This document shows positions 17,089 to 51,122 of a DNA stretch of 64,000 nt, in pieces (within the stretch, counting starts at the first letter, position 1; each line of letters starts with the position of its first letter). The stretch lies in the NCBI GenBank assembly GCA_037190965.1, contig JBBCKI010000031.1, forward strand, positions 1 to 64,000, written 5' to 3'. The DNA is from Chthoniobacteraceae bacterium. GTDB lineage: Bacteria > Verrucomicrobiota > Verrucomicrobiia > Chthoniobacterales > Chthoniobacteraceae. Under the pieces are notes generated by a model that was not told the origin of the DNA, made no database searches, and saw only the letters and a list, made by a program, of their open reading frames with translations. The position numbers and the translations under genes are program-made.

Positions 17089-17550
17089 CTACTTCGCCCA
17101 GGGGCCGAAGTACGGGAGCACTTCCCCGGGCGGGGTCTTGACGAGATCGGCGTGGATGTCGCGCACTATCCGTTCGACCAAAGCGGGCTCGACTCCTTCG
17201 AGGATGGCGTCATGGATCTCCGCGTTGGCGGCGAAGTACCACTGCTCCGTCCGCTCACGCTCAAGAATTATCCCGATTTCCTTGGCCACCAGCCGCGTCA
17301 GGCGACGTTCGTTTTCCGCGAGCGTCGGAAGCGCCTCGTAAGTGGATTGCTGAGTCGTCAAAGGCGGCCCGGAGCCTTTCGCCATCGGAAAACGCCCCGA
17401 CTGGTCAGTGACCTTTTCCGAGAAACGCCCATGCGCCTCGGTGAAATTCATGTCTTCCACCAGTTCCAGCTTCGGCCCCCGGGTTGGGGTTTCAACCACC
17501 CGATAAGCCTTCAGCCGCCCCAGATTCGCGAGAATGATGATCGTGTCCAT
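17089..17550 (-). CDS. Host-attachment-family (baeRF12/AtsE-like) protein
   Basis: IIILANLGRLKAY ... TDQSGRF ... DLVK pattern typical of the family. Confidence 0.7.
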   Translation of the reverse strand: MDTIIILANLGRLKAYRVVETPTRGPKLELVEDMNFTEAHGRFSEKVTDQSGRFPMAKGSGPPLTTQQSTYEALPTLAENERRLTRLVAKEIGIILERERTEQWYFAANAEIHDAILEGVEPALVERIVRDIHADLVKTPPGEVLPYFGPWAK

Positions 17551-17598: not shown

Positions 17599-18336
17599 CT
17601 ACCGCTCCCTGCCGAAAAGCGAACCCCAGCTCCATTCGCCTTCCTGCTTCTGTTGCTGGACCTTCAGCCGTCCCAGAAGCGATTGCAGCGTCAGAAACAC
17701 GCGATGCCACTGGCTTTCGACGGAGGCGATGCTGTTTTCGTGATCGGCAAGATACCGGATCGAAGGCGCGCCGTTGATGAGCGCCATGACTTCATCCTTG
17801 CGCGGCCCTCCCTGCTCGACCGCCGCGAGGATCACCTCCAGCCCCTGCGTGATCAGGCTCTTGATTTCAAGAAACTGCGCCTCTTCCTCCTGCGAGAAGT
17901 TCTTCTGACGGGCAAGGTTCACGTAATGATTAAACTGCTTCCAGCACTCGATGTATGTTTCGAGATAGAGAATGAAATCGTCGAGAGTCGGGTTGCTCAT
18001 GGCGGGTAAGGAGATGGCGGTTCTGGCGGTGCTGGAACTGAGGCCGCCCGGGTTCAGAAAAACGAGGGCGCCCCCGCGCAGTTCGATCGCCAGAATCTTG
18101 ATTTCGCGGTAGTGCGTCTCCAGCGTCGTCAGCGGGGCGTGGATCTTTCGCGCGGCGGCAAAGGCGTGCAGGGCGGTTTTTCCAATCTGCTCGACCGCCT
18201 CCCGCGACACCGAGCCCGGCAAGGTGCTGGCGACGATCATCCCCGCACGATTCACCACGACGGCACCGGAAGGCGGTCCGCCGATCCCGGGGACCGGCGC
18301 TCCACCCGATTTGGAAAAAAGATTCAAGAGACCCAT
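17599..18336 (-). CDS. Hypothetical protein with roadblock-like N-terminus and helical C-terminal domain
   Basis: GAVVVNRAGMIVASTLP resembles a roadblock beta-hairpin; possible internal start MSNPTLDD at 18000. Confidence 0.65.
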   Translation of the reverse strand: MGLLNLFSKSGGAPVPGIGGPPSGAVVVNRAGMIVASTLPGSVSREAVEQIGKTALHAFAAARKIHAPLTTLETHYREIKILAIELRGGALVFLNPGGLSSSTARTAISLPAMSNPTLDDFILYLETYIECWKQFNHYVNLARQKNFSQEEEAQFLEIKSLITQGLEVILAAVEQGGPRKDEVMALINGAPSIRYLADHENSIASVESQWHRVFLTLQSLLGRLKVQQQKQEGEWSWGSLFGRER

Positions 18337-19394
18337 TGCGTCAGCACTTTATGGAATGCGCTCCGGACTTGCTCGGGCTCCAGAGCGGGATCAAACCCGG
18401 CCACCAACGTTTTACGCCCTCCAGTCTCCCGGGAGGCTACGGCAAGATGCCGTTGAGGGCCATACCCCGCAATTTGCAACGGGCCCGTGACCCCGAGCGT
18501 TGATCCCAGCGCGCGGTATTCCTGAAGCATCCGCTGTGCCCAGCCTGCCACGCCCTCGGGATCCTGACAGGCCCACTGTTCCGGGCGGCCGGACCCCTCC
18601 TGAACGAGGAGAAATTCCAGCCCCTTGTCCCGATCAATCGCGGCGAGCTTGGGAGGCGGTTCGGCCGCCTGTGCCTGGGCTTCTGCCGCCATCGCTTTGG
18701 CCTCGTCGATGGCCTGGGCGGTATCCAAAAGGAGACCTTGGGTGGAGGTGAAAATCGTCCGGGTGCGCGCAGAGTCGGGCGCAAGCAGGTCGAAACTGCC
18801 CACTTTCCAGGAAAGAATCTCCTTGAAGGCCTTCTCCGCCTTCGAGGTCGCCGTCGCCGCGTCAATGATCTCGCCGTTCCTGAACCAGATGTAGCCTACG
18901 GAACGTTCGCTGGTGATTTTCACCACGGCGGAACTCTGCGTCAGGCATTCGAGCTGGATAATATCGACCAGCGCCTTGTGCTCCACCACCCCCCGGAAGC
19001 CGGTCTGGCGCGCGTCGCGCTCCAGAAGCGACTCGACGCATTCCAGGAAGAGCTGCCGCTCCCGTTGTGACTTCGGTTTCTCAATAAAGAGATCGATCCC
19101 GATCTCGTAGGCGCGCGAACGCGTCTGGTCGTCGCTCAGACCGGTCATCACCACGATCCGCAATAACGGAAGACGCTTGCGGACGATGGAGAGCACCTGA
19201 AAGCCGTCCATCTGGGGCATTCGCAGGTCGGTGAGCAGCACCGCAAAAGGCTCGCTCTCCAGAAGCGAAAGCGCCCGGGAGCCAGAATTGACCGTCAGGA
19301 TATCCGGCTGGCTCGGCAGGGCTGAAAACATCTGCCGGCACACGTCCAGAAAGTCCTGGTCGTCGTCGAGAATCAAGATTTTGGGTCGCGACAT
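18324..19394 (-). CDS. Response regulator with DUF4388 (PATAN-like) domain
   Basis: ILILDDD, TDLRMPQMDG receiver; GFRG...LVDIIQLEC...GYIWFRNGEIIDA...AFKEILSW..GSF. Confidence 0.88.
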   Translation of the reverse strand: MSRPKILILDDDQDFLDVCRQMFSALPSQPDILTVNSGSRALSLLESEPFAVLLTDLRMPQMDGFQVLSIVRKRLPLLRIVVMTGLSDDQTRSRAYEIGIDLFIEKPKSQRERQLFLECVESLLERDARQTGFRGVVEHKALVDIIQLECLTQSSAVVKITSERSVGYIWFRNGEIIDAATATSKAEKAFKEILSWKVGSFDLLAPDSARTRTIFTSTQGLLLDTAQAIDEAKAMAAEAQAQAAEPPPKLAAIDRDKGLEFLLVQEGSGRPEQWACQDPEGVAGWAQRMLQEYRALGSTLGVTGPLQIAGYGPQRHLAVASRETGGRKTLVAGFDPALEPEQVRSAFHKVLTQWVS

Positions 19395-19603
19395 CCTCTA
19401 ATTTTTGCCCGTGTTTCCGCCGGATTCAACTTAAATACCTTATCTATATTGATAGTAAAAATTCTCGAATTCGCTATATTTTCCGTGAAGGGAAAGGGAA
19501 AGGAGACGGGTCGGCAACAAATTATAGCCCAGCAGCGGCCCCTCGCGATTTCTCGCAATCCCCTGTGGCTTGAAAGCTGCATCGGGCTATATGTAAGCCA
19601 ACG

Positions 19604-21472
19604 ATGTTTGGATTCCTTAAAAACCTGATCGGTGAACGGGGAGAAACCCCCACGATTACGCCGGAGCCGCCCACGCCTCCTGCCGCCCCTCCCGTTTCCA
19701 CGGGAACTCCGGCGGTAGCTTCGCCTGCCGCTCCTGTGCCCTCACCACCAGCTCCTTCCCCGAACAAGAGCCGGATGGAGCGGGTTCTGCTCCCGCTGAA
19801 AACCATCACCGACCGTTTTCCGCCGCCGCTCCGCGCCGTGCTTGCGGAGGCTCCCGCCGCTTCGGTTTCCATCGCGATCCCGGTAGAGGATATTCTCAAG
19901 CGTCTGGCGCGGGGACGGGTCGAGATTTCCGTGCGAGAACTCCGGAGTGTCGCCCCGGCCAATACCTTCGTCTCGGATACCTCCCGCGACGAGGAGTGCG
20001 TAGAATTGCCGTTGCAGGAGCTTCTTTCCAAACTCGATCCCACCCTTCTCAAGCCCGCCTCGCAGCGGCGGATCGAAGTCCCCGAAAACATCACCAGCCC
20101 TTTCAATCGGCAAGCGTCGCCTTCAAACACGGCGGCCACGCCCTCGACCCCCGCGCCTCAAAAAGAAGCCCCTGCGGAAGAAAACCCGAAAGACAAACTC
20201 AAGAAGTCGGGCCTCGTCGAAGCCTCTTCGGAGCTTCAGGCGCTACTGGCAGGGATCAAGAAAGATTCTTCCGCCGCCCCGGTCCCTGTCGCCTCGCCCA
20301 AGCTCCAGCCCATTCCCGCTCAGGAACCGGCAAAAGCCCCGGCTGCCGACGCCAAGCCAGTCAAGCCGATCAATCTGCTCGCGCCAAAACCGCAGGCGGC
20401 CCAACCGGTGCCCCAGAAGCGGCAGCCGATTATTGACGCCCCCGGCATCAAGCTGCGGGAAGCTCCCCCACAATCACCGCAACGGCCAGCCGCGCCTAAA
20501 GCCTCCGCTACCCCACCTGCGCTGCAAGGAAACATCACGCTTCCCCTCGCTAAAATCAGCGTGGGCTGGCCTGAAACGATCCTCGAAGAAACCGCAGCCT
20601 ATCCACCCGATGCCCGCGTCGAGTTTCCCGCCGCCGAACTTGCGGCGGCGCTAAGGCAGGGGAAAGTCACGGTGCCATGGCAACGGCTCCGCGCGATGAT
20701 TGTCCCGCAGGTTCCCAAGGCATCCGGCGACTCTCTCTACGACGAGGCGCTTCTGGAACTCCCGCTGCCTGTCGTCGCCCCAATCTTCATGGCGGCCTCT
20801 AACCCCCAGGGGGCGCAACAACGCATTAAGGTGGACGAGAGCATGCCCGCGCTCTTTTCCGCAGTCCGCCCCGAGGCCAAGACCGCTCCTCAACCCACGC
20901 CCAAGGCCGAGCCAAAGCCCGAGCCAACGCCTCAACCGGCACCCGCCGCTCCTGCACCAAAGCCCGCGCCACCGACCCAGCCTGAAGCAGCCAAACCGGA
21001 ACTCAAGGCCGAGCCCGCCCCCGTCTCCAAGCCCGCCGAGCCCACGGAAGCCGCAAAACCGCCCGCCGTCCCCGCCGCTCCTACAGTCCCTGCCGCCCAA
21101 CCGGGCGCGCTTGGGCTGGACGACCGGATTCCCTCGGAACTCGTGGCCCGCGCCTGCGCCCTCAACGGGGTGGCCGGATCGGTCGTCGCGCTTTCGGACG
21201 GGTTGCTGGTGGCGGCCACGGTGCCGCCCGAATTCAAGGCGGAGACCATCGCCGCCTTCCTCCCGCAGGTCTTCTCCCGATTGGAGCAGGCTGCAGGCAC
21301 CATGCAGATCGGCGAGTTGCAGACCCTCATGTTCACGGCGGGCAACCGCCCCTGGCAGATCTGGAGAGCGGGGTCGCTCTTCTTCGCCGCCGTGGGCCGC
21401 CCCAACGAACTGCTCCCCGGAGCGCAACTGAAGATCATCGCCGCCCAGCTCGCGCGGCAAATCAAGCTATAA
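19604..21472 (+). CDS. Pro/Ala-rich protein with a duplicated unknown domain and C-terminal roadblock/LC7 domain
   Basis: C-terminal LNGVAGSVVALSDGLLVAATVP roadblock pattern; two internal repeats of about 95 aa. Confidence 0.8.
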   Translation: MFGFLKNLIGERGETPTITPEPPTPPAAPPVSTGTPAVASPAAPVPSPPAPSPNKSRMERVLLPLKTITDRFPPPLRAVLAEAPAASVSIAIPVEDILKRLARGRVEISVRELRSVAPANTFVSDTSRDEECVELPLQELLSKLDPTLLKPASQRRIEVPENITSPFNRQASPSNTAATPSTPAPQKEAPAEENPKDKLKKSGLVEASSELQALLAGIKKDSSAAPVPVASPKLQPIPAQEPAKAPAADAKPVKPINLLAPKPQAAQPVPQKRQPIIDAPGIKLREAPPQSPQRPAAPKASATPPALQGNITLPLAKISVGWPETILEETAAYPPDARVEFPAAELAAALRQGKVTVPWQRLRAMIVPQVPKASGDSLYDEALLELPLPVVAPIFMAASNPQGAQQRIKVDESMPALFSAVRPEAKTAPQPTPKAEPKPEPTPQPAPAAPAPKPAPPTQPEAAKPELKAEPAPVSKPAEPTEAAKPPAVPAAPTVPAAQPGALGLDDRIPSELVARACALNGVAGSVVALSDGLLVAATVPPEFKAETIAAFLPQVFSRLEQAAGTMQIGELQTLMFTAGNRPWQIWRAGSLFFAAVGRPNELLPGAQLKIIAAQLARQIKL

Positions 21473-21476
21473 GACT

Positions 21477-22091
21477 ATGGCGCTCATCAATCAGGCCACC
21501 AAGGAGCTTCACATCAAGATCGTCTACTATGGCCCCGCAAAGTCGGGCAAGACGACGAACCTGGAGCAAATCCACGCCAACATCCAAACCGCCCAGCCGG
21601 AGAAGAAAGGGAAACTGGTGTCGCTCTCCACGAGCGCGGACCGGACGCTCTTCTTCGACTTCTTCCCGCTGGAGGCAACCATGGTCAAAGGCTTTACCAC
21701 GAAGTTCCAGCTCTTCACCGTTCCCGGACAGGTCATCTACAATACGACTCGCCAACTCGTCCTGCGTGGCGTGGACGGCATCGTCTTTGTCGCCGATTCG
21801 CAGTACGACAAGATGCAGGAAAACGTGGAGAGCTTCCAGAATATGGAGGAGAACCTCAAGTCGCTCAACCTGAGCCTCGCGGACATCCCCTACGTCATCC
21901 AATACAACAAACGCGATCTCGACAATCCCGCGCCGATCGAGTTTCTTGAGTTCCTGCTCAACAATAAAGACGTGCAGGTTCCTTCCTTCGAAGCCTCGGC
22001 GACGAAAGTAGAGGGGGTTTTCGAAACACTCAACGCCATCACCCGGCTGCTGCTCCAGAAATTCATCAAGCAGGAAACCCACTCCGTCTGA
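21477..22091 (+). CDS. mglA: MglA-family small GTPase
   Basis: KIVYYGPAKSGKTTNL, DRTLFFDF, TVPGQV, LRGVDGIVFVADSQ, QYNKRDL match Myxococcus-type MglA. Confidence 0.92.
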   Translation: MALINQATKELHIKIVYYGPAKSGKTTNLEQIHANIQTAQPEKKGKLVSLSTSADRTLFFDFFPLEATMVKGFTTKFQLFTVPGQVIYNTTRQLVLRGVDGIVFVADSQYDKMQENVESFQNMEENLKSLNLSLADIPYVIQYNKRDLDNPAPIEFLEFLLNNKDVQVPSFEASATKVEGVFETLNAITRLLLQKFIKQETHSV

Positions 22092-22120
22092 CCCTCTTTC
22101 CCCCATCTCTCCCCGCACCC

Positions 22121-22603
22121 ATGATCCCTCAGCTCAACGAAGACGATCTGGCGGTTTTCGACGCGGTACTCCGCGATCTGGTCAAAAAAAGCGAAGCCAG
22201 CGTAGCGCTTATCGTCGAGCGCGCGGGCTATCTCATTCACCAATACGGCGAATTGCCCGGGTTTGAACCCACGCAGGTCGCCACGCTAGCCTCCAACGCG
22301 TTTGCCGCCACCGAATTCATGGCGAACCTTATCCGCGAGCACGATTTCTCGGGGATGTACCAACAGGGGAGCACCATCAGCACGCTCACCCTGAACCTCG
22401 GGCCTTCGTGCCTGCTCTTTGTCGCCTTCGACTCACAGTTGAGCGCGGGCGCGGTCAAATATTTCGCCAGCGAAGCGGTGGCTCCGCTGGTCCAGCAACT
22501 CGAATGCGCGGCGGCGCGCGCTCCCGAGAGTCTCTTCGACCCGGCCGACCTCAACCTTGAGGATGTGAGGCCGCTTTTCCGGCGGGATGCCGCCGGATCG
22601 TAA
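22121..22603 (+). CDS. mglB: MglB-like roadblock/LC7 protein
   Basis: ALIVERAGYLIHQYG, ATLASNAFAAT, FSGMYQQG, GAVKYF; adjacent to mglA. Confidence 0.85.
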   Translation: MIPQLNEDDLAVFDAVLRDLVKKSEASVALIVERAGYLIHQYGELPGFEPTQVATLASNAFAATEFMANLIREHDFSGMYQQGSTISTLTLNLGPSCLLFVAFDSQLSAGAVKYFASEAVAPLVQQLECAAARAPESLFDPADLNLEDVRPLFRRDAAGS

Positions 22604-27244: not shown

Positions 27245-28990
27245 TCACTGCCGCAGCAACGGCAGCCTCAGCGCGCTCTCATCCGGGGCGCTGATCGTGA
27301 AGACGCCCGATTCCCCCTCGATCGCTCCCAGGCAACCGCCTCCGGGCGCTGCCGGGCCGAGGATCAGCCGATGCGACTTGCCTTCGGCGGTCTTGAAAGA
27401 AACGACACCTGTTTTTTCCCCGGGGAGCTCGCCCCCCTTCCTTCGCATGGCAGTAAGGCCCGCGAGGGTGTTCGCCATGCTCTCGGCATTGACGGCATCG
27501 ACGGTGCCTGCTGCCCCCTCCGGCAGCTTCCAAGCCCCGCCTTCACGAACCAAAGCCACCGTCCCGGACCCCAACGAAACAATCTCACCGGCCTTATAGC
27601 CAAAGAGCGCCAGCGAACGCCATTCGGCAGAGTAGGGACTCAGGACGTCGAGAATGGATTTGTCCATCGCGACCACATACGGCTCGTTCTCGGCGCGCGC
27701 GTACACCTGTTCTCCCTCCACGAGGCCGAAGGCCGCCGTCACAATCGGCTGCTCACCCGCGACCGCCTCGGCGGTATTCTCGGACGAGTACGAGGAGAAC
27801 GTTACCTTGAGCTGCGGCTCGGCGAGCCCATACTTTGGCAGGTCCGAGGCGACATCGGCGACAAACTTGCCGATCTCCTGCGTTTGCAGCGCCTCCAGGA
27901 GAGCCTGCACCTTTGCTCCGTTGACCGGGGCCGTGGCGTCACCGTCGCGGAGGATCCAGTCCTCCTGCTGCCGCTGGAGGATCACCTTGGGTTTTCCGGC
28001 GGGAGCCAGCGTGATGCGGTCGACAATATCAAGCTCCACGCGAACCAGCCGCCGGTCCCGGAAGTCATTCGGCTGGAGCCCAAGAATCCGCTCCACACGC
28101 GGCGGCAGCAGACAAACCGAATTGCGGGCGGGCAACCGGGCATAAATATTCCCCGTCTTTTCGTCCCGCGCGCCCAACTCCAGCGTCACCGGCTGCTCCC
28201 GGCTCGTGGCGCGAAGCGTCACCACCGCGCGCGGCTCGCTCAGGCCGTAACGGTTCAGGTTTGCCCCCTGGTCGGGCGCGAAAGAAAGAATCTCGGTGTT
28301 GAGCAGGCTCCCGATCAGATCGGTCACGGCGGTCTCTCCAGCGCGCGCCTTCAGCGGTTGGCTCAAAACCCATTGCCCCGCCTGCTTCGCCAGTTCAATC
28401 TGCCCCGCCGGAATCTTCAGCGAGACATGATCCACATGCGCCCCTTCCACGTCGGTCAACCGATGATCGCGAAACGCGTCGGCAGGCCGGGCGATCAGGC
28501 TCCGAAGTTCGCTGCTCACAATATGAACGTTGTTTGAGCCCTCCAGCCGGAGATACATCTTCCCTTCAACCGCCGTCTCCTTGCCAAACAAAAACTCCGG
28601 CGGCGCGTTGCGGCCAAGGAGCTTGAGCTTCAGGTTCGGCTTGGCCACCCCAAAATTTTTGAGCTGCTTCTTCTCCAGCTCTTTTCCCGGAAACGAAGCC
28701 TCCTTGCGGAGCACCCCGCAACGGCCCAGGATCTCGGCCACCGCCGCCGCGTCGGCCCGGTCTTTGACGGGCGACTCCAGATCCCAGCGGCCTCCCCGCT
28801 TGCGAAGCTCGACCCCGGCCTCGCCTCCCGTGATGACGATGCCATCGATGCCGTCCTGGTCGAACAACGCCACGTACTCCTCCCGCAACGCCGCTTCGCG
28901 GGTGCTCGGGCGGCGCATCTCGTAAATGACGATGAACGCAAAAAGCCCGACGGTAACGGCGGTGAGAAGAAATGTCGTTTTCGTCTTCAT
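27245..28990 (-). CDS. DUF4340 domain protein
   Basis: N-terminal TM; three repeats of the W.L..P.K.RA ... L..YGL..P pattern; last gene of the Gld-like ABC operon. Confidence 0.82.
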   Translation of the reverse strand: MKTKTTFLLTAVTVGLFAFIVIYEMRRPSTREAALREEYVALFDQDGIDGIVITGGEAGVELRKRGGRWDLESPVKDRADAAAVAEILGRCGVLRKEASFPGKELEKKQLKNFGVAKPNLKLKLLGRNAPPEFLFGKETAVEGKMYLRLEGSNNVHIVSSELRSLIARPADAFRDHRLTDVEGAHVDHVSLKIPAGQIELAKQAGQWVLSQPLKARAGETAVTDLIGSLLNTEILSFAPDQGANLNRYGLSEPRAVVTLRATSREQPVTLELGARDEKTGNIYARLPARNSVCLLPPRVERILGLQPNDFRDRRLVRVELDIVDRITLAPAGKPKVILQRQQEDWILRDGDATAPVNGAKVQALLEALQTQEIGKFVADVASDLPKYGLAEPQLKVTFSSYSSENTAEAVAGEQPIVTAAFGLVEGEQVYARAENEPYVVAMDKSILDVLSPYSAEWRSLALFGYKAGEIVSLGSGTVALVREGGAWKLPEGAAGTVDAVNAESMANTLAGLTAMRRKGGELPGEKTGVVSFKTAEGKSHRLILGPAAPGGGCLGAIEGESGVFTISAPDESALRLPLLRQ

Positions 28991-29013
28991 GACGGAGATC
29001 TTGTTAAACCGCT

Positions 29014-30471
29014 CTAACGCCTGCGTTTAAACCAAGCAATCAACCCCAGAAGCGCGGCCCCGCCGGGGATCGCCCCCATCGTGACCATCGCCAGGGAATT
29101 CATTTGGGAATCGGAAAGGCTCAACGAAAAATTGCGGACCGTCTTCGGCGCGATCCCGATCAGCGAATCGCGGTCGAGCAGCCAGTTAACGCCGCTCAAG
29201 ACAAAATCGAGATCGGCGGTCGTCAATGCCTGGTTGCTTATAAACGCCGAGTTGCCGACCACAATCATGCGGGAAGAATCCACCTGTACCCGCTCGTCGC
29301 TCAACGCGCCCTTCTCCACCGAGGCGGCGACCAGCGGCGAAGCGGTGTCCTCCGTGGCGTTGAAGTAGATGCCGCCGCCACCGCTGATGTCGTAGCGGGC
29401 CTCCGCCCAGAACCCTTTGGAAGCGACGATCAACGGCGTCACCCGGATGTTCTCTTCCTTCACCCGGTCGCCCTCCAGCGTGAGCGACTGCGTCACCCCC
29501 ATGAAGGCGGCGCTCACGTTCTGAAGCCGCTTGGTGATGGGAGAGCCCGGGTTGAAATCCCCGGTGATCTCCCTGAGCACTCCGGTCACATCCCCCAGCG
29601 GCACCGTCTTTAGCACCCGGTCGTCATTGACCACAACGCCGTGCCGATGCAAGAACGCCGCGAGGTTCGGCGTCGGCGAGGCGGGGTCAAGCAACACGAA
29701 AACCCGTCCCTGCTTGTTCCAGTACGCCGCCAGCATCCCAAGTTCGCGCTCCGAGAAATCGTACTTCGGACCGACAATAAAGAGCATCCGGGCATCTGCG
29801 GGAATGCCGTCCACATCGGTCAGCTTGAGCGGCGCGACGACGACGTTCTGCCGCTCGATGAAGGTCTTTAATCCGGAAAGGTCTTCGGAGTTGAACGCCA
29901 CCTCCCCATGCCCGCTGATGGCGTAAATTTTATTTGCCCCTTGCGCGGTCACTTCGATCAACGCGCTCGTCAGCGCCTGCTCTCCGGTGAACGCCTTCAA
30001 ACGTGGCTTCTCCAGCGGGTTGAAGGAGATATCGAACTCCGCCATCTCCGTCGCGTTCACCAGTTTGTCGCGACCATCGTAGGAGACAATGACAACGTTC
30101 TCCTGGTCGCCCAGTTTGTACTGAGAGGCCAGCTCCCGCGCCCGGGTCAGGTTCAGGTAGGGGTTGACGACCTCCACTCGCACTTTTTTCTTCGATACCC
30201 CGGCGTATTCGCGGGCCAGCCCGCCGACGTCATTCGCGATGGGCGAGTTGCCCGCGAAGAAGACCGTCATTTCAACCGGCTTCTTCAAATCGCCGATCAC
30301 GCGTTTGGTCTGTTCGCTGAGCGAGTATTTATGGTCCCGCGAAAAATCCCAGCGCCGGTAATGGTTGAACGCGAAGTAGTTCACCATCATGACGATCAGA
30401 AAGACCAGCGCGATCTGGACGACCACATTCGCGCCAATCCGGGAGCGGTTGATGGAAGAGGGGTTGGACAT
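29014..30471 (-). CDS. GldG-family ABC auxiliary protein
   Basis: RWDFSRDHKYSLSEQT, GEQALTSAL, GHGE, C-terminal TM. Start placed at MSNPSS. Confidence 0.85.
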   Translation of the reverse strand: MSNPSSINRSRIGANVVVQIALVFLIVMMVNYFAFNHYRRWDFSRDHKYSLSEQTKRVIGDLKKPVEMTVFFAGNSPIANDVGGLAREYAGVSKKKVRVEVVNPYLNLTRARELASQYKLGDQENVVIVSYDGRDKLVNATEMAEFDISFNPLEKPRLKAFTGEQALTSALIEVTAQGANKIYAISGHGEVAFNSEDLSGLKTFIERQNVVVAPLKLTDVDGIPADARMLFIVGPKYDFSERELGMLAAYWNKQGRVFVLLDPASPTPNLAAFLHRHGVVVNDDRVLKTVPLGDVTGVLREITGDFNPGSPITKRLQNVSAAFMGVTQSLTLEGDRVKEENIRVTPLIVASKGFWAEARYDISGGGGIYFNATEDTASPLVAASVEKGALSDERVQVDSSRMIVVGNSAFISNQALTTADLDFVLSGVNWLLDRDSLIGIAPKTVRNFSLSLSDSQMNSLAMVTMGAIPGGAALLGLIAWFKRRR

Positions 30472-30491
30472 GGCGGAAAAGGGGATGGGTA

Positions 30492-31247
30492 TTACGCCTT
30501 CCAGCGGCGGAACTGAAAAATCTGGTGAGTCAGCGTGAGAATCAGCGCGGTGGCCGACAGATAGAAGACCACCCGCCGCGAATCGATGATCCCCTTGGAA
30601 AACTCGCTCATGTGCTCCAACGTGGAGAAATAGCTCACGATGTCGCGAAGGATCGGCGAAACATTGGGCGAGAAGAAAGTCAGGAGCCCGGCAAAGAAGT
30701 AGAGCGTGAGCAAGCAGAAACAGATTACCGCCGCCACAATCTGGTCCTGCGTCACCACGGAGGCGAGGCAGCCGATGGAGAGGAAAAACATTCCCACCAG
30801 CATCAGGATGAGAAAGCTCCCCCAGAAAGCGCCCGTCGCGTTGGCCGCGTCGACCTTGGCGATCCGCTCGAAGGCGACGAAGTAGAGGAAGTTCGGCAGC
30901 CAGATCACCGCATAGAACACCAGTGCCCCGCCGAACTTGGAGAGCACCACCTGCCAATCACGCACCGGGGCGGTCATCAGCGTTTCGATGGTTCCCATCT
31001 TAAATTCTTCGGCGAAGACCCGCATGGTGATCGGAGGAAAAATCAAAATGAATCCGATCCAGAACGGCACCGAGTTGAAAAATCCTTCCACCACCGTCAC
31101 TTCCGTCGGCCCGCGAGAGAGCAGCGCGACATCCATGTAAAAGGCGAACCCGGTCAGCAGCAGGAAGAAACAGAGCACCACGTAAGCCGTGGGCGAGTAG
31201 AAGTAGGCCCGGACTTCGCGGGCGAGAAGAGTGAGGAATTTCGACAT
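30492..31247 (-). CDS. ABC-2 permease (GldF-like)
   Basis: REVRAYFYSPTAY, TMRVFAEEFKMGTIETLMTAPV. Confidence 0.88.
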   Translation of the reverse strand: MSKFLTLLAREVRAYFYSPTAYVVLCFFLLLTGFAFYMDVALLSRGPTEVTVVEGFFNSVPFWIGFILIFPPITMRVFAEEFKMGTIETLMTAPVRDWQVVLSKFGGALVFYAVIWLPNFLYFVAFERIAKVDAANATGAFWGSFLILMLVGMFFLSIGCLASVVTQDQIVAAVICFCLLTLYFFAGLLTFFSPNVSPILRDIVSYFSTLEHMSEFSKGIIDSRRVVFYLSATALILTLTHQIFQFRRWKA

Positions 31248-32978: not shown

Positions 32979-33003
32979 CCGAGCTCGAGTATAACCAGCC
33001 GCC

Positions 33004-33546
33004 ATGACTCAACGGATCATCAAAAATTCAATTTTCACAGGAGTCCCATTCGGTCTTTTTATGGGGCTCTTCTACGCGTGGAGACAGGGTTCCACGAGCG
33101 GACTGTCAATCGGCCTTGCGGGTGGAGTATTTTTTGGGGTCGCAATGGCCATCTTCGCAGAAAATCAGCGAAGAAAAATGGAATGCAAAGACCATTCCTT
33201 TGAGGGTGAAAAGATTCTCCTTCAGGGACCCGCCAATCATTTCCAAAATGGTGAAGGCAAGGGAGGCTGGCTAATCTTGACCGAAAGGAGACTAATGTTC
33301 CGGTCTCATGGTAAGAATCTACAGAACCAACCAGTTGATGTCATGGTCGCAGACATTGCCAGCGCCGTTCCAACGCTCACCATGGGTTTCATTCCAAATG
33401 GCCTTAGCATAGAGAAAAGGAATGGGGTTAAAGCGAGGTTTGCAGTTTCGAAGAGAAAAGAATGGGCCGAACGCATCGAACAGTTAATTTCCCCCGAACA
33501 AGGCGATGCAGGCACCCCTCCCTTCGGGCCGAATCTTGATCACTAG
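33004..33546 (+). CDS. Membrane protein with GRAM/PH-like domain
   Basis: Two TM segments, then ANHF..GEGKGGWLILTERRLMFRSH; C-terminus reads into an attC-like site. Confidence 0.7.
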   Translation: MTQRIIKNSIFTGVPFGLFMGLFYAWRQGSTSGLSIGLAGGVFFGVAMAIFAENQRRKMECKDHSFEGEKILLQGPANHFQNGEGKGGWLILTERRLMFRSHGKNLQNQPVDVMVADIASAVPTLTMGFIPNGLSIEKRNGVKARFAVSKRKEWAERIEQLISPEQGDAGTPPFGPNLDH

Positions 33547-33576
33547 TCGTCAGGCGATTCCTCTCCAACAAAAAAG

Positions 33577-34014
33577 ATGCCATCTGATCCCACATCTCTG
33601 TCAGAGGCATTGAAGGATATCGACCCGAAGAAATTCCCTCACGGACTCGAACAATACAAACGGTTCGGCCCGAAGACGGTGCGCGCGATTCTTGCCGTTC
33701 GTGATCTCGTGATGCATTCTCCCGAGCTCAGCGAGACTCAATTTAGAATTGGGATCACGACTGATCCAAAGACTCAAGAGGCAAAGGATCGCCAAGCAGG
33801 CTGTGTGAAGTTCGAGATTATCTTTGAATCCGTTGATTGCGATGAGGGCCGAAGCGTAGAGGCCGACGTCCGATTGAATTTTTTATGGCACTTTCCCGGC
33901 CGCTGCCTGAACAAGGGCGATTACAGGGGCGAAAATTTGATAACTGGATTAACCGCGTTTGTCTATTTGGCCTGCTTTCCTGCAGGGTCCTTTACCATCC
34001 TCAAAAGCACCTGA
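33577..34014 (+). CDS. Hypothetical protein, weak GIY-YIG-like motif
   Basis: FRIGITTDP ... SVEA ... CLN pattern. Confidence 0.55.
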   Translation: MPSDPTSLSEALKDIDPKKFPHGLEQYKRFGPKTVRAILAVRDLVMHSPELSETQFRIGITTDPKTQEAKDRQAGCVKFEIIFESVDCDEGRSVEADVRLNFLWHFPGRCLNKGDYRGENLITGLTAFVYLACFPAGSFTILKST

Positions 34015-34032
34015 CAATGCGAGGCATCCATT

Positions 34033-34317
34033 ATGAAATCCGAAGTACTATTCATGGGGCTCCTTCCAACAATCATTGCTCTAATCGCGGTTATTGTTTC
34101 TTTGGTTATTTCGTTCAAAATCCGTCGCGCCTCCCACTTTCTGTTAAGTTGCATGGTTGGCGTCGGAGTCGCCTGGTCGCTCATGATTCTATATCGGATT
34201 TTCATCTTGGGAGCGTGGCCTACCTGCCTACCGCATTTGGTGATCGGAGTCGTTTTCATCATCGTAATTCTGCAAAGCATACTCTATGGACGCCAAAAGT
34301 CCTATTCGCTCGAATGA
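34033..34317 (+). CDS. Small hypothetical membrane protein (3 TM)
   Basis: 94-aa hydrophobic ORF co-oriented with the array. Confidence 0.55.
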   Translation: MKSEVLFMGLLPTIIALIAVIVSLVISFKIRRASHFLLSCMVGVGVAWSLMILYRIFILGAWPTCLPHLVIGVVFIIVILQSILYGRQKSYSLE

Positions 34318-34521
34318 ACACCACTTTGTAAATCATTTCACATGATCACCCAAAGGCTGATAAGACATGCAGCCATGGTCCCATTTCTATTGCCGAATTC
34401 GCCGCTCTCGACCGCTCGACCTTCACGCCGCTAGATGAGATTTGTCCGTCCAAAACCGAATGAATATAGCGCCTGTCCCGAGTAACGAAGGCCGATCACG
34501 GACCAATCAGACGATGCCTCT

Positions 34522-34866
34522 ATGCGAGCGCTCGCTTACATTCTCATTGCCTCCGGCCTCTTTTGCCTAGCCGATGCGGCATACGACGAGTATCGCGGCG
34601 TCGCGGATGCGTTGTCTCCAGGACGTGCGTGTCAGCGCCACGTCATCGCTCGTGCAGACGACCCCAAACAGTTCCGCAACCTTATGGCGTATCAGTGGCT
34701 TCGCGGGCCGATCGTTCTTTTCGGCGGTTTCATCATTCTTGGCCTCTGCCTCCGCGCTGATCGCCTTGATCCGTTCTCACCCAATTTCGCCGGATCCGAC
34801 GCACTCGATGCCTTGAACCACACTCTCGCTGAAGAAGAAAAGAGGCGCCACAGCTCACTGGAATGA
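34522..34866 (+). CDS. Hypothetical membrane protein
   Basis: 114-aa ORF with two hydrophobic segments. Confidence 0.55.
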   Translation: MRALAYILIASGLFCLADAAYDEYRGVADALSPGRACQRHVIARADDPKQFRNLMAYQWLRGPIVLFGGFIILGLCLRADRLDPFSPNFAGSDALDALNHTLAEEEKRRHSSLE

Positions 34867-34963
34867 CAATACTCTCAACATCCGGTCATGTGCTGCACCT
34901 CCGCTCGGCATCGACAATAGGAATCCGGTGAACCCGCTCCTCTAGAGCTCCCGAACCATTAGC

Positions 34964-36058
34964 TCAAGGGGTTCCCGGCGCCGTCATCAGCTTGTCAACC
35001 TGGCTGAATAGCCCGTCCACAGCAGGCTTTACCTGATCGCCAACAATAGGCAAAGTGAGCACGGGCTGAGCGGCCGCATGAAGGTTAGCCACCAGCGGAC
35101 GAAAGTGATCCAGGGCGGCTTTCTGGACTGGCTGGGGAAGTGCGGCCAACCCGGAGCGAACTCCGCCCAACTTCGCGGTAATGTCCCGCAGCTTCGGCAC
35201 AGCTGCGCCGGCGCTGGCCTCGTCGGTAATGGACCCAATGGTCGCAGTCGCGTCTCTAAGAAGGGACGATCCCTCGTTAATAACTTTCGCGCCGTCCCGC
35301 TCAGCAGGGGCCTCTTGTACCTGGCTTTCTCCTACCAGCGGAGGGGTCTCGGCAGTCCTTCTGAACATCCTGGGTAGGAAATAGAGAATCAAAGCCGCTA
35401 TCACTAGAGGAATTATCCATCTCAAGGCCGACATCCCTGGAGCCACGGGTTCCCGGGGAGATACACCTGACTCAGGGAGTCTACCCACCGGCGGGGTGGC
35501 GCGTGAAGGGCCTCCGAGCACGCTGCCGAGGCCGGGCACTGCCGAGGAAAGCATGCTGCCAAGCCCCGCCGGCATGGCAGCGGCAATGTTTTCCTTCTGC
35601 CCGGCGAGCATATTGGTGATGCCTGCGGCATCCAGCCCCTTCGAGTGCTTCCCGATGACGCCCAATACGACAGGCGCGAGCATCCCCAACAATTTTCCGA
35701 TGACGCCTTCGCCCACTCCGGTAAACCGCGCAAGCACGCTGCCAATCTGGCTCACGACCGACCCTCCGAGAATCGAACTGAGGGCGTTGGAGCCCTGTGC
35801 GGCAGCGGTAGCCCCGCCGCCCGAAAACAGGCCGGAAATGTTGTCGGTGACTCCAGGGTCTTGTTGCGACAGAACGTTGGCGAGGTTGGCTCCGCCTCCC
35901 GGTTTGGAGACAGCGCCAACCAGACCGGCAAGCAGACTCGGCACGGCGGCGCTAACGGCTTTACCCGCCTGGTCCTGACCGATTCCGAGGGTTGAGCCTA
36001 TCTTGCCTAGAGTGTCACCGCTGGATAACAGATTGAGAATCGTTTGTACGAGGTTCAT
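34964..36058 (-). CDS. DUF937-family protein
   Basis: MNLVQTILNLLS, AVSAAVPSLLAGL, LLGMLAPVVLG, then a TM segment and C-terminal helical domain. Confidence 0.8.
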   Translation of the reverse strand: MNLVQTILNLLSSGDTLGKIGSTLGIGQDQAGKAVSAAVPSLLAGLVGAVSKPGGGANLANVLSQQDPGVTDNISGLFSGGGATAAAQGSNALSSILGGSVVSQIGSVLARFTGVGEGVIGKLLGMLAPVVLGVIGKHSKGLDAAGITNMLAGQKENIAAAMPAGLGSMLSSAVPGLGSVLGGPSRATPPVGRLPESGVSPREPVAPGMSALRWIIPLVIAALILYFLPRMFRRTAETPPLVGESQVQEAPAERDGAKVINEGSSLLRDATATIGSITDEASAGAAVPKLRDITAKLGGVRSGLAALPQPVQKAALDHFRPLVANLHAAAQPVLTLPIVGDQVKPAVDGLFSQVDKLMTAPGTP

Positions 36059-47566: not shown

Positions 47567-48142
47567 CTAGGGAGTCTCCGCCGCGCGGACTTCCACCGGC
47601 GCCGCCGCAGGGACACTCGCCGCCTTGGGCCTGACGGAGATGGCATATTGATCAATGGAAAACTGCACCGCCGCCAGTTCGCCCACGTAGCGAAGTGCCT
47701 CCGTGAACGGGATATTGCTCAGGCGCAACGTGACCGGTGCGGCGCTGTTGACGCCCGGCTGCAGCACGAAACTTGGCTTCAGCTTGTCCCCCGACGCCTT
47801 TGCCGCCTGCTGCCTAAGATATTCGAGGGCGGAATCAAGCGTCGCCTCCCGGATTTCCACCTGCGGCAGGATCAGCTTCTTCAACTGCGCTTCCGTCTTG
47901 GCTCCCGGCCCAGCCTGAGACTCGGCCGCCGCGATCATTTTGAGATAGTTCTTCGCCACGACATTTTTCGGGTCGGCAGCGAGGACCAGCTCGAATTTCG
48001 TCTTTGCCGACGAGTAGTTGCCCGCCGCGTATTCGCGCTGGGCTTCGGTGATCAGCGATGCCTGCGCCCGTGCGGGGGTGGCGGGGAGCGTCATTGCGGC
48101 CAGGAGGAGGGAGAACAGGGAGCGTTTGATGAGCAGGTTCAT
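47567..48142 (-). CDS. Secreted protein with TPR-like and STN/secretin-N-like domains
   Basis: Signal peptide; AGNYSSAKTKFELVLAADPKN (TPR-like); ILPQVEIREATL ... VTLRLSNIPFTEALRYV (STN-like). Confidence 0.75.
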   Translation of the reverse strand: MNLLIKRSLFSLLLAAMTLPATPARAQASLITEAQREYAAGNYSSAKTKFELVLAADPKNVVAKNYLKMIAAAESQAGPGAKTEAQLKKLILPQVEIREATLDSALEYLRQQAAKASGDKLKPSFVLQPGVNSAAPVTLRLSNIPFTEALRYVGELAAVQFSIDQYAISVRPKAASVPAAAPVEVRAAETP

Positions 48143-48232
48143 GAGGATTGAGGGGTTGAAATCGTCCGCTTCAGCAAGGCCCATGTTAGACGATCTTCCC
48201 GGCGAAATCAATCTTTGAACGCCGGGCAGCGA

Positions 48233-48640
48233 TCAACTGCCGCAGCTTGACGGGCGTTTTCTTTCATTCCAAATTTTACCGCAATCACTGCATTTGTATC
48301 TGTTCTTGGCGAACAGGAATGGAAAATTAAGAAGCAGCAGTGACAAAAAGGAAATACGCCTTGGCAATTCGTCTATTCCTGTATTGGCAGAGTCGCAGAA
48401 AGGACATTGAACGGCTACAGCCTCTTCCAGGGCAACACTCTCTTGCTCCAATAATTCCTTGGCTTTAGGAATATCCTCCTCTGCAATCTGAACTCGCACT
48501 CCGCCAATCGCATTGGAATACAACCAATCCATTTGCACAAGATTCTCATCTTGAACAAATGCGGGAATCCCACCTGCTTCCAGCCGCATACGGAGCAAAT
48601 GAGCCTCTTCGGGTTTACTGAATGTAGCGATGGTAATCAC
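48233..48640 (-). CDS. DUF2007-like putative signal-transducing protein with zinc ribbon
   Basis: ATFSKPEEAHLLRMRLEAGGIPAFVQDE, AIGGVRVQI, CPFC...CSDC; GTG start inferred. Confidence 0.8.
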   Translation of the reverse strand: MITIATFSKPEEAHLLRMRLEAGGIPAFVQDENLVQMDWLYSNAIGGVRVQIAEEDIPKAKELLEQESVALEEAVAVQCPFCDSANTGIDELPRRISFLSLLLLNFPFLFAKNRYKCSDCGKIWNERKRPSSCGS

Positions 48641-48648
48641 AATTTCGC

Positions 48649-48918
48649 CTAATGTCCAAGGTGAGTCACGGAGTGCCGGGGAATTGTCCCACCGCTTTGC
48701 CCCCATCGCGGAAAACGACCAAATAAAATTCCGCAAATAAGAATAAGTCGGAACGCCTCCCAAAACGCAATCGGCCGAACACCAAATATCTGAGGAATGG
48801 TCATGTTCCAAAGCCATCGCAGGAGAGCCGGGGCGAGAAAAAAGAAAATTACGGCAATGAGCGCAATCGCAGCCAGATCAGGCCCGGCAGGATTAAATTT
48901 GTAAACACCGGCAAGCAT
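48649..48918 (-). CDS. Small hypothetical membrane protein
   Basis: LWNMTIPQIFGVRPIAFWEAFRLILICGILFG; tail reads through an attC-like site. Confidence 0.6.
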   Translation of the reverse strand: MLAGVYKFNPAGPDLAAIALIAVIFFFLAPALLRWLWNMTIPQIFGVRPIAFWEAFRLILICGILFGRFPRWGQSGGTIPRHSVTHLGH

Positions 48919-48945
48919 ATTCGAAAATGTGGGATGTTGTTGGAG

Positions 48946-49455
48946 TTATTGGATGACTTGTATCTGCTGTAAGAGTTTTGAGTCCTTTCCTGATGAACTC
49001 ACCCATAAAATCGTAAAACCAGTCGTAAATAAAAGCCAGGTGATTGCAAAGGCGATAGTCAGAAATGTTGAACGATCGAATCCTGCCGCTAACACCGATT
49101 TGTTTGGATCGGCAGGATCATATTTGACAAAAACGGCGTTGGCATTAATAAGCTTATCATGAATAGCTTTATGCTCTTCTCGTGTGCTGCTGCCACCATA
49201 ACCATATGCGATGCGATCCCCAGAATAGCTGACGCCTTCTACTGAATAGTCATACAGCACCTTGACCTTCCAAGTTGTTCCATCGCCGTCGGAATTTTCT
49301 TCGATCTTACATTTACTGATGTTCGCCGGCACTTGGGGCCATGAGAGCGACCTTCTTCCTTGATAATATGAAAACCCGCCGTAGCCGAGCAACCCAAAGC
49401 CGACAGCAAAAAAGAGGCCAATGAAGAGAGCAAAGAGGATCATGCCGTTTTTCAT
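48946..49455 (-). CDS. DUF3592 domain protein
   Basis: TM, SWPQVPA, YDYSVEG, VKYDPADPNKSVL, TM. Confidence 0.85.
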   Translation of the reverse strand: MKNGMILFALFIGLFFAVGFGLLGYGGFSYYQGRRSLSWPQVPANISKCKIEENSDGDGTTWKVKVLYDYSVEGVSYSGDRIAYGYGGSSTREEHKAIHDKLINANAVFVKYDPADPNKSVLAAGFDRSTFLTIAFAITWLLFTTGFTILWVSSSGKDSKLLQQIQVIQ

Positions 49456-49529
49456 TATTTGTCCTAATGATCAAGACTGAGGCACGGCGCGAAGCGGAGC
49501 TGCCTCCACCGCCTTGTTTGACTTGTTTC

Positions 49530-50126
49530 TCATATGAAAGAATGGCGCGATTCATCCAAGATGGGAGACATCTCCGCCTCTTGGAGTCGCTGTTCAAGGG
49601 CTTGGGATCCTTGCTCGCGTGCAAACTCGCGTTCGGATTCAGTAATCGGAATCATCCAAAGGAAGTCGACACGGTCACCATTTAGATCAAAACCACGGAA
49701 TCCGTCTGATTCAAAGTAAGGAGGAAGAAAGAAGTAAGATGTCAGTAAAGATGGCTTCGCGGTCATCGGCATTCCGTTGGGAACGGTGTGCCACCAGTGC
49801 AGGAAAGTCTTATCCTCAAATGGCATCTCAGCCAAACCCTTCAGCACGGAGAACATCCACCCCTGCGGTTCCGGCACATACATCAAAATCTCCGCTCTTG
49901 AAGACATATGCTTATCACAATCCTGAGGTTGAAGCTGTCGCTCGTTACTCATCCCACTGGTGATGAGAGTCCAGTATGGACGATCAACCGTCGGCTCGAA
50001 TTGGTAAATGTCGATGTGAACAGGCTTGATGTCGGTGGAGTGCATTACATCCTGGGTCATCGGCCCGAAAAATTTCTGATAGTGGCGCTCTCTTGCTTCG
50101 AGAAAGCCGTTTGGATGGGTGAGCAT
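49530..50126 (-). CDS. Suppressor-of-fused (SUFU) domain protein
   Basis: HIDIYQFEP, WTLITSGMS, HTVPNG, VDFLWMIPITESE. Confidence 0.85.
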   Translation of the reverse strand: MLTHPNGFLEARERHYQKFFGPMTQDVMHSTDIKPVHIDIYQFEPTVDRPYWTLITSGMSNERQLQPQDCDKHMSSRAEILMYVPEPQGWMFSVLKGLAEMPFEDKTFLHWWHTVPNGMPMTAKPSLLTSYFFLPPYFESDGFRGFDLNGDRVDFLWMIPITESEREFAREQGSQALEQRLQEAEMSPILDESRHSFI

Positions 50127-50369
50127 GGTTTTCTGTTGATCGATTTAGCTCAGCCGCCGCGCGAGCGCGGTTGGCTGCAGCGCTTGGTTAGGTGTTGCGG
50201 TTGCTTGGAGGAATCGCACGAATAGATATCACGACGGCAAAAGCAAGAAGATTTAAGATACCGCAGTTCCCTGCTCGCGCGCTAGCGTCAAGGGAATGGA
50301 AAGAAAGCAAGACGGCATAAGGCACGATCAATCCTCGCCTGCCACACGGCCCGCTGGGGGCCACGATGG

Positions 50370-51122
50370 CTACGAAAGCGCGATGGCCGGGTTCGCTGCG
50401 GCACCCTGGTTAGGTGGCAAATACTCACAGCCAAACTTGGTATTCTTCATGGAAGCACAACCAGCGATATTCAAAAGCAAAGAACCACACAGCACTATGA
50501 ACAGCCAAGAGAACACAACACGCCGTTTGGCTCGTAAGCTCAAAGTCGTCAACGCAACATAGTAACTCCACCCCACAAAAGCTGCGAAGTATATGTTTGC
50601 GGAACTATTTGGGACAACAGGGGCAAGAAGCATGAAGAACGGAAATCCTGCGGGACTAAAAACCGGCGGCAGCAGAATGCCCGCCCAACTGAATTGCCAA
50701 TCTTCTACAAAGGCCATTGCGATAATCGCCGCAATCCAAGCCACTACGCAAAGCGAGCCTTTCAGCTGCAACGAAATCTGTGATGATTGCTCCATGCGTA
50801 CGATGATTGGCAGTGGCCCGAAATCTATTCCGCGCTCTCGGTATGCTTCGTTCCAGTTGTAAATCGGCTCAGTCGCCCAATCAAAACGATCTCCATTATT
50901 TCCGACCGCCTCGGTTGGGCAGCACTTGACACCTCCTTCTTCTAGAAGCTTAGCCTCTTCTTCATTTTCCGGCTGCTTAAAAACATATGATGTTCCAGTC
51001 CGGTCATCGCGTTTGACATTATTGGGCGCAGTCTCGCGGCACAAATCGCAATCAGTGCATTGACTGTCGATGTAGTAACGACCCGGGATATTCAACGGGT
51101 ATCTTTCGTAGAAATTGGCCAT
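50370..51122 (-). CDS. 4Fe-4S single-cluster ferredoxin fused to a membrane domain
   Basis: YYIDSQCTDCDLCRETAPNN ... CPTEAVG, then 3-4 TM segments; tail PPNQGAAANPAIALS is encoded by an attC-like site. Confidence 0.72.
   Translation of the reverse strand: MANFYERYPLNIPGRYYIDSQCTDCDLCRETAPNNVKRDDRTGTSYVFKQPENEEEAKLLEEGGVKCCPTEAVGNNGDRFDWATEPIYNWNEAYRERGIDFGPLPIIVRMEQSSQISLQLKGSLCVVAWIAAIIAMAFVEDWQFSWAGILLPPVFSPAGFPFFMLLAPVVPNSSANIYFAAFVGWSYYVALTTLSLRAKRRVVFSWLFIVLCGSLLLNIAGCASMKNTKFGCEYLPPNQGAAANPAIALS

Follow-up and report, generated by a model that had tools for sequence, protein, structure and literature searches.

Which machine is controlled by an MglA-type GTPase whose genomic surroundings hold no pilus gene? 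The question is raised by a five-gene locus at positions 17599–22603 of the window, i.e., the whole stretch of 64,000 nucleotides from a Chthoniobacteraceae bacterium (GCA_037190965.1, contig JBBCKI010000031.1). Loci of relatives carry L-numbers, genomes G-numbers, families f-numbers and contigs of the window's own genome C-numbers. Five open reading frames (ORFs) had been described here in an initial annotation made from the letters alone, and all were found at their coordinates; none has a second copy in the genome. Rightward run a scaffold gene, mglA and mglB; leftward run the genes of a response regulator (receiver domain REC, PATAN, probable roadblock) and of a 245-amino-acid (aa) protein that joins a roadblock to a helical bundle. 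The locus had been read as a self-contained, phosphorylation-gated polarity or localisation switch of a probable verrucomicrobium. The taxonomic guess was right, the closest named relatives being Chthoniobacteraceae. The locus did not prove self-contained: its likely output, a TPR-MshEN protein and PilB, is encoded on contig C4 (C4:102962–105773), and the kinase would also lie elsewhere. The reading favoured here, and held to be moderately likely, is that the five-gene switch governs the timing, and probably the polar site, of the work of one type IV pilus assembly ATPase, the TPR-MshEN-linked PilB. Both the polarity role and the gating by phosphorylation are inferred.

Evidence for and against a pilus output

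The link to PilB was found in relatives. In 40 of the 56 genomes of the order that have both genes, mglA follows the TPR-MshEN gene on the same strand at a distance of 3.5–5.6 kb; the set excludes the window's family and family f7 (which has no TPR-MshEN match), and the 40 include the unpublished genome G182. In the remaining 16 genomes the two genes are on different contigs, and nine of these have mglA less than 2 kb from the contig start. The gap between TPR-MshEN and mglA is filled by pilB and a scaffold gene in 5/5 loci read (L047, L048, L050, L051 and L053), and the same spacing recurs in 3/3 genomes of family f69. L075, from outside the class, carries a single same-strand run of REC-PATAN, PATAN, TPR-MshEN, pilB, scaffold, mglA and mglB, and in L079 pilB stands directly after mglB. 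The pair of TPR-MshEN and pilB is itself uncharacterised and is kept across much of the phylum.

Co-occurrence pointed in the same direction. Among 201 genomes of the order, MglA was matched in 96, TPR-MshEN in 76 and DUF4388 (i.e., PATAN) in 95, all in the same families, and none of the three was matched in f2, f4, f8, f9, f10, f12, f13 or f16. TPR-MshEN was likewise present in all 31 genomes tested from another order, in which the module consists of six genes. In the window's own genome, the TPR-MshEN and pilB genes on C4 (L071) are followed by neither scaffold nor mglA. This genome has a type IV pilus set with a further pilB, pilC, four pilT/U genes and a pilM-like operon, five PilB/GspE-type ATPases in all, and no match to flagellin. 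The N-terminus of the PilB of the L071 pair, which we take to resemble the MshEN cyclic di-GMP motif, is without the Gly of that motif.

Two known interactions suggest how such a switch could act. In cyanobacteria, PATAN binds both PilC and PilB1's N-terminal domain (10.1101/2021.06.11.447907), and in Myxococcus PilB is localised by way of the TPR protein SgmX, which MglA-GTP recruits (PMC11580455). In the proposed mechanism, MglB dimers would stimulate GTP hydrolysis as in Myxococcus, while the scaffold would position MglA via its roadblock and hold downstream partners with its repeat domains. The TPR-MshEN protein would relay MglA-GTP to PilB, which is the role of SgmX in Myxococcus. The regulator would receive phosphate from an unlinked kinase, act on PilB through PATAN and dock via its roadblock on the roadblock-helical protein; the latter may hold it at the membrane.

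Several observations weigh against this reading. The locus itself contains no pilus gene, and a pilB-like match was found within 8 kb in just one of the 80 closest loci, i.e., the best 80 of 521 relatives of the 245-aa protein from a scan of GTDB species, which were kept for locus reading. PilT occurs in 187/201 genomes of the order, families without MglA included, and pili here therefore do not require MglA; as a co-occurrence marker PilT was rejected as uninformative, being nearly universal. In family f7, MglA was matched in 23/24 genomes and TPR-MshEN in 0/24, with only weak PilT matches. Four genomes of the window's family have TPR-MshEN and no MglA match, and both f63 genomes have the helical domain and no MglA match. 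In the MglA tree described below, the window protein branches together with the six-gene copies from the other order (SH-aLRT 99 for the clade) and away from the pilB-linked copies found in the window's order. The last 11 residues of the 245-aa protein, which might contact the membrane, have a low hydrophobic moment (0.16, compared with 0.37–0.38 for the N-termini; no control). Moreover, related genomes are non-independent samples. As judged from sequence, the pilus link concerns one PilB paralogue and is indirect for the window's locus: its MglA clusters with the six-gene copies and is no direct descendant of the pilB-linked one, so that the connection to pilB is borrowed from a sister clade.

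A general localisation or signalling switch, with an output in this lineage other than the pilus motor (such as secretion, the shape or division of the cell, or a different polar structure) and with the pilB link confined to the sister-type module, is a rather unlikely alternative. The five- or six-gene type stands near pilus genes in only 1/80 closest loci and 1/15 loci of the other order, its MglA has a clade of its own (SH-aLRT 99), f7 retains scaffold and mglA without TPR-MshEN or mglB, and in the 2014 survey the majority of MglA groups show no tie to pili (PMC4316618). Yet TPR-MshEN was present in all carriers tested (31/31 in the other order, 13/13 in the window's family), and the window's family has either a degenerate pilB-linked mglA or none, as expected if the present module took over. 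It is improbable that the switch gates a pilus-like machine that serves DNA uptake, adhesion or secretion and not directed movement, without setting front-rear polarity. The helix-hairpin-helix domain in the L075 scaffold and the five PilB/GspE-type ATPases would suit such a machine, as would the fact that no Frz-like link was found, the chemosensory cluster on C67 looking Wsp-like by its gene order; however, the window's scaffold gave no helix-hairpin-helix match, and a genome paper on Chthoniobacteraceae predicts twitching from pilus genes, with no experiment (PMC11596606).

The five proteins and their roadblock domains

The GTPase core on which the proposed control of PilB would depend is intact. 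mglA (21477–22091, plus strand; 204 aa) encodes a Ras-like GTPase whose G1, DRTLFFDF, TVPGQ and NKRD motifs, listed in the initial annotation, are all complete, and its best PDB matches were MglA of Thermus and Myxococcus (E ~1e-59). Group-1 MglA proteins are characterised by a G1 P-loop, an Arg finger beside the G2 Thr, TVPGQ in G3, NKxD in G4, a length of 150–240 aa and an mglB within four genes (PMC4316618). The window protein shows a P-loop, Arg56 beside Thr57, TVPGQ, NKRD and a length of 204 aa, and an mglB homologue is directly adjacent. Groups 2–5, which comprise the conservon and group-5 PATAN cassettes, have GTPGQ in G3 and lack the Arg finger; TVPGQ and Arg56 set the window protein apart from them. 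At the sequence level, the group-1 active site of MglA is complete. In the P-loop (21531–21554), Ala follows Pro where Myxococcus and Thermus have Gly; this holds for 58/58 close homologues and for most verrucomicrobial MglA copies read. This Gly presumably corresponds to Ras Gly12 and affects hydrolysis.

mglB (22121–22603, plus strand; 160 aa) was rightly called mglB-like, with Robl_LC7 above the Pfam cut-off (E 1.6e-6). The NCBIfam equivalog NF052242 was the sole family matched (50.2 bits, E 2.9e-13, below its curated cut-off of 200 bits), and PDB MglB chains were the best sequence matches. In a sequence alignment, the C-terminal extension matches the Ct-helix of Myxococcus as far as residue 153 and retains the end motif. 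The protein is predicted to be a typical coupled roadblock partner and GTPase-activating protein (GAP). In Myxococcus, MglB acts as GAP, with its Ct-helix (PMC6785124), RomY boosts MglB (PMC9481161), RomRX acts like an effector (PMC13408092), and the paralogue MglC contacts MglB and RomR, not MglA (PMC4719450). Given the MglC precedent, extra roadblocks need not touch MglA.

The scaffold gene (19604–21472, plus strand; 622 aa) encodes a short hydrophobic N-terminus, two repeat domains, Pro/Ala-rich linkers and a C-terminal roadblock (aa 506–622; 21119–21469). That it ends in a roadblock was borne out: Robl_LC7 matched with E 0.003, which is under the cut-off, and 3/11 distant homologues scanned reach it. 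PDB sequence matches of this roadblock were weak and limited to Asgard roadblocks (E 0.27–0.7). The folded domain of about 110 aa that occurs twice upstream of it is a feature beyond the initial annotation. Copy 1 (aa 58–170; 19775–20113) and copy 2 (aa 310–420; 20531–20863) share 24% identity within an alignment of 117 rows; a direct BLAST comparison was not significant (E 0.65), and their kinship rests on profiles, which match both copies in relatives. The profile built from 117 copies matched 1967 clusters at E ≤0.001 in a set of 1.84 billion representatives. Single proteins contained as many as nine matched stretches, and a C-terminal roadblock was also present in 134 of the best 150 repeat-domain proteins. 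Copy 1 was modelled by AlphaFold as an alpha/beta domain (pLDDT 81, pTM 0.62). It gave no Foldseek match at E ≤0.001, a best VIA Z of 2.4 among 48,161 chains and no PDB sequence match, and Atlas matches stayed under 0.9; with a model of this pTM, the lack of a structural match is no proof of a new fold. An N-terminal amphipathic pattern was considered for the scaffold family and dropped, as it fits just 39/150 repeat-domain proteins. The L075 homologue (L075:2188–4275) has its helix-hairpin-helix insert between repeats and roadblock (HHH_3, E 1.5e-16).

The scaffold gene accompanies mglA no less regularly than mglB does. For 40 mglA matches outside the closest set, both genes were found within 3.5 kb in 26 cases, only the scaffold in eight, only mglB in three and neither in three; for all 116 mglA matches, repeated genomes included, the counts were 101, nine, three and three.

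The regulator gene (18324–19394, minus strand; 356 aa) was matched by Pfam REC (aa 6–111) and PATAN (DUF4388, PF14332; aa 137–233) with E-values of 1.2e-20 and 6.8e-15, the latter, for PATAN, being above the cut-off; DUF4388 is the PATAN domain (10.1101/2021.06.11.447907). The receiver has the complete set of phosphorylation residues, as D10, D11, D56 and K106 were kept in 13/13 sequences and T/S84 also in 13/13. The C-terminus (about aa 250–356), for which a possible degenerate roadblock had been suggested, is a probable roadblock on two grounds. It aligned to the scaffold roadblock by hhalign at 82% over 98 columns, compared with at most 2% for non-roadblock controls; since MglB and the scaffold roadblock, a known roadblock pair, scored only 3.7%, hhalign is an uneven test for this fold. 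In homologues, Robl_LC7 was the commonest Pfam match at the C-terminus (7/71, best E 0.0025, all under the cut-off). A chemosensory cluster at C67:21695–32033 (L203) encodes MCP-like, CheW, CheA-REC and CheB-like proteins and a hybrid kinase, and is a candidate phosphate source. By its gene order, we take it to be Wsp-like.

The 245-aa protein (17599–18336, minus strand), whose gene overlaps that of the regulator by 13 bases, has no Pfam match at its N-terminus. The roadblock-like fold proposed there was supported by an AlphaFold model (pLDDT 87, pTM 0.81) and Foldseek: the top matches were dynein and Asgard roadblocks (E 8.5e-4 and 1e-3), with LAMTOR chains also among the matches. The modelled roadblock (aa 24–96) is truncated, keeping the sheet and the central helix and missing the first and last helix. 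With the roadblocks of MglB, scaffold and this protein well supported by fold model or profile matches, and that of the regulator probable, being based on hhalign and weak Robl_LC7 matches, the earlier count of up to four modules stands as three plus one. The second half, a helical bundle (aa 114–236), had not been described before and found generic structure matches only (Z up to 12.1); the idea of a RomX homologue was dropped, as no match backed it. In a predicted complex of MglA, the C-terminal domain of the REC protein, GTP and the 245-aa protein, the score was 0.84, fell to 0.00 with the partner replaced and stayed at 0.82 with MglA replaced; this counts neither way.

Roadblock and helical parts are encoded separately in 8/80 closest loci and in 15/15 loci from the other order. 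Met113 is invariant in 116/116 aligned homologues and marks the start of the helical gene where the two are split. Of 72 fused genes, four could not be parsed and 68 were used for base counts around this codon. Its ATG is preceded by C in 64/68 and by G in 0/68, compared with G in 813/1986 for other internal ATGs of the same genes, and a preceding Ala codon is GCC in 44/45, compared with 76/170 elsewhere. Genuine mglA starts have a likewise C-rich, G-poor context. As the genes are related, these counts do not amount to a formal test. Together, context and invariance suggest that the helical protein is still made separately, probably from an internal start at Met113 that yields a nested in-frame product of 133 aa (17599–18000, minus strand). 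Stand-alone helical clusters of 130–136 aa do occur in Verrucomicrobiota. Trp237, Leu240 and Phe241 are conserved in homologues of the 245-aa protein, and a role as membrane tether may be considered. Distant stand-alone homologues (L189–L193, L074) lie near hisS/aspS and have a hydrophobic C-terminal stretch which, by eye, resembles a membrane anchor; no Pfam family was matched in the three scanned. In L180:6004–7206 and L188:5519–6727, three tandem copies of the helical domain form a single ORF.

Conservation and history of the locus

To read the locus as one switch requires that its two operons belong together. Most of the 80 closest relatives are named Chthoniobacteraceae or Chthoniobacterales, and the cultured Chthoniobacter flavus Ellin428 carries the locus (L170). 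All five genes were present in 59/80 loci and in 51/54 of those with enough upstream DNA, and the expected synteny of mglA with the leftward genes was thus found. MglA was found in 27/40 relatives, one of these by a marginal match. Among the 201 genomes of the order, the profile of the 245-aa protein matched the window's family only (13/24), and these 13 are exactly the family members with an MglA of at least 69% identity; in 10/13 the two genes are linked within 6 kb. The profile also matched 73 of 301 genomes of the class. The order with the six-gene type was found in this class sample (73/301) and missed in a phylum-wide one (2/251 matches). Its six genes encode roadblock and helical parts as two genes. 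Of 15 loci from this order, 12 showed the same divergent layout with mglA, two ended at a contig edge and one was unlinked; a PilT-like match beside mglB was seen in none of the 15.

As judged from these sequences, MglA, MglB and the other three genes travel together. It is very improbable that only MglA, MglB and the scaffold cooperate and that the leftward operon is a separate system sharing the promoter gap. The 245-aa protein is indeed unmatched in many families with MglA (0/24 in f6, 0/23 in f14), its stand-alone helical homologues lie near hisS/aspS and away from mglA, and the two operons are apart in L103, L138, L173 and L174. However, two orders share the divergent layout (51/54 and 12/15 loci), and the 13 family genomes with the 245-aa protein coincide exactly with the 13 that have the closest MglA. 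The operons diverge from a gap at 19395–19603, presumed to hold their promoters, which had been described as AT-rich and has 46% GC compared with about 60% in its surroundings. No sigma-70 consensus site was found in it, and a scan for promoters and terminators gave chance levels (1 vs 1.0 and 7 vs 6.3). Other arrangements of mglA were also seen: family f7 (L052, L090, L091, L092) has a scaffold gene and an intact mglA with no mglB adjacent, and G030 has a second mglA behind a DUF4388-FGE-sulfatase gene (L055).

The history of MglA was followed with quick IQ-TREE trees of 60 rows and, after removal of long branches and near duplicates, of 30 rows, without bootstrap. Monophyly of the order's own MglA was rejected by an AU test (p = 0.00045; the group was picked after the first tree). 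On the basis of the tree, the idea that the window locus is the order's pilB-linked operon in a new place was also rejected. Within the window's family, pilB-linked mglA either sits on a long branch, has damaged G motifs and lacks an mglB (L054, L057, L058, L085) or is missing (L093 and the window's own genome). The degenerate copies may be pseudo-GTPases or decaying genes. The simplest reading of these sequences is a transfer with replacement of the resident mglA; ancient paralogy with differential loss is a possible alternative.

Relation to known systems and neighbouring DNA

The closest known system is the polarity module of Myxococcus xanthus (MglA, MglB, MglC, RomR/RomX and RomY, with PilB output via SgmX, FrzS and SopA). 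Common to both are a group-1 MglA that bears an intrinsic Arg finger as well as TVPGQ and a coupled MglB with an extension aligning to the Ct-helix (PMC6785124), as well as extra roadblock proteins, a receiver protein and a TPR protein beside PilB, the last being found here in relatives. In contrast to RomR, which consists of REC, a Pro-rich and a Glu-rich region (PMC4719450), the receiver protein here is REC-PATAN-roadblock. MglC is a single-domain orphan, whereas the extra roadblocks here are fused to scaffold, regulator and helical bundle, and no chain named MglC was among the PDB sequence matches of the scaffold or regulator roadblocks. Furthermore, the partners are clustered in one locus here, and the P-loop has Ala instead of the Myxococcus Gly.

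Parts of the module had been catalogued in 2014 (PMC4316618), namely the GTPase, its GAP, PATAN genes near group-1 and group-5 mglA, systems in which one mglA has two mglB genes, and REC-roadblock fusions (five REC proteins with an MglB-like C-terminus). The sole verrucomicrobial entry found in that survey was a group-5 pair in Methylacidiphilum (PMC4316618; also PMC4476040), and its parts considered here do not contain the scaffold, the repeat domain, the roadblock-helical protein or the TPR-MshEN/pilB linkage. Since the GTPase core is well known, the finding extends a known system and is not a new class. Cyanobacterial regulators of the PatA type (PixE, PixG, LsiR) also combine PATAN and REC in one protein (10.1101/2021.06.11.447907), but here REC precedes PATAN, a roadblock is added, and the gene lies beside a GTPase and not in a chemosensory cluster. 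A literature search, with most subscription papers outside its reach, found no published description of the module.

In Myxococcus, the route from MglA-GTP to PilB is unresolved, as direct contact of SgmX and PilB was not detected (PMC11580455). The verrucomicrobial gene run of TPR-MshEN, pilB, scaffold, mglA and mglB names candidate MglA–PilB links, and five or six soluble proteins suffice for testing. The module also unites two lines of pilus control studied separately, MglA in myxobacteria and PATAN in cyanobacteria, and adds an unnamed domain family of considerable size (1967 clusters) without structural match. A cultured carrier of the module exists in Chthoniobacter flavus Ellin428.

As in eukaryotic Ragulator/EGO (PMC5680233, PMC5696360), several roadblocks, some of them truncated, accompany a small GTPase here, and they may be tethered to a membrane. 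This likeness is an analogy, with homology limited to the roadblock fold. In a wider version, the four roadblocks would form a membrane-tethered, Ragulator-like platform linking phosphorylation of the receiver with the MglA cycle as well as with a dedicated PilB via PATAN, the TPR-MshEN adaptor and a new-fold scaffold domain; the tether gene would have two nested products, and the package would have come from another order and replaced the resident mglA. Taken as a whole, this version is unlikely.

The flanking genes scanned encode an alpha/beta hydrolase, a Host_attach protein, PurC, an aminotransferase and a mannose-1-phosphate guanylyltransferase; there is no kinase among them, as had been stated for the locus. 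The Host_attach or baeRF12-like gene (17089–17550, minus strand; PF10116, E 6.7e-13) lies just beyond the leftward operon and had no BLAST match in the 28 relatives' loci checked, and is therefore placed outside the module. Elsewhere in the window, a DUF4340 gene adjoins an ABC_transp_aux/DUF7088 gene (27245–30957, minus strand), a pairing that we take to be GldG-like and associated with gliding. Two stretches of the window, 33001–35000 and 48001–51000, have a low GC content of 48–53%, compared with about 61%, and are possibly acquired DNA.

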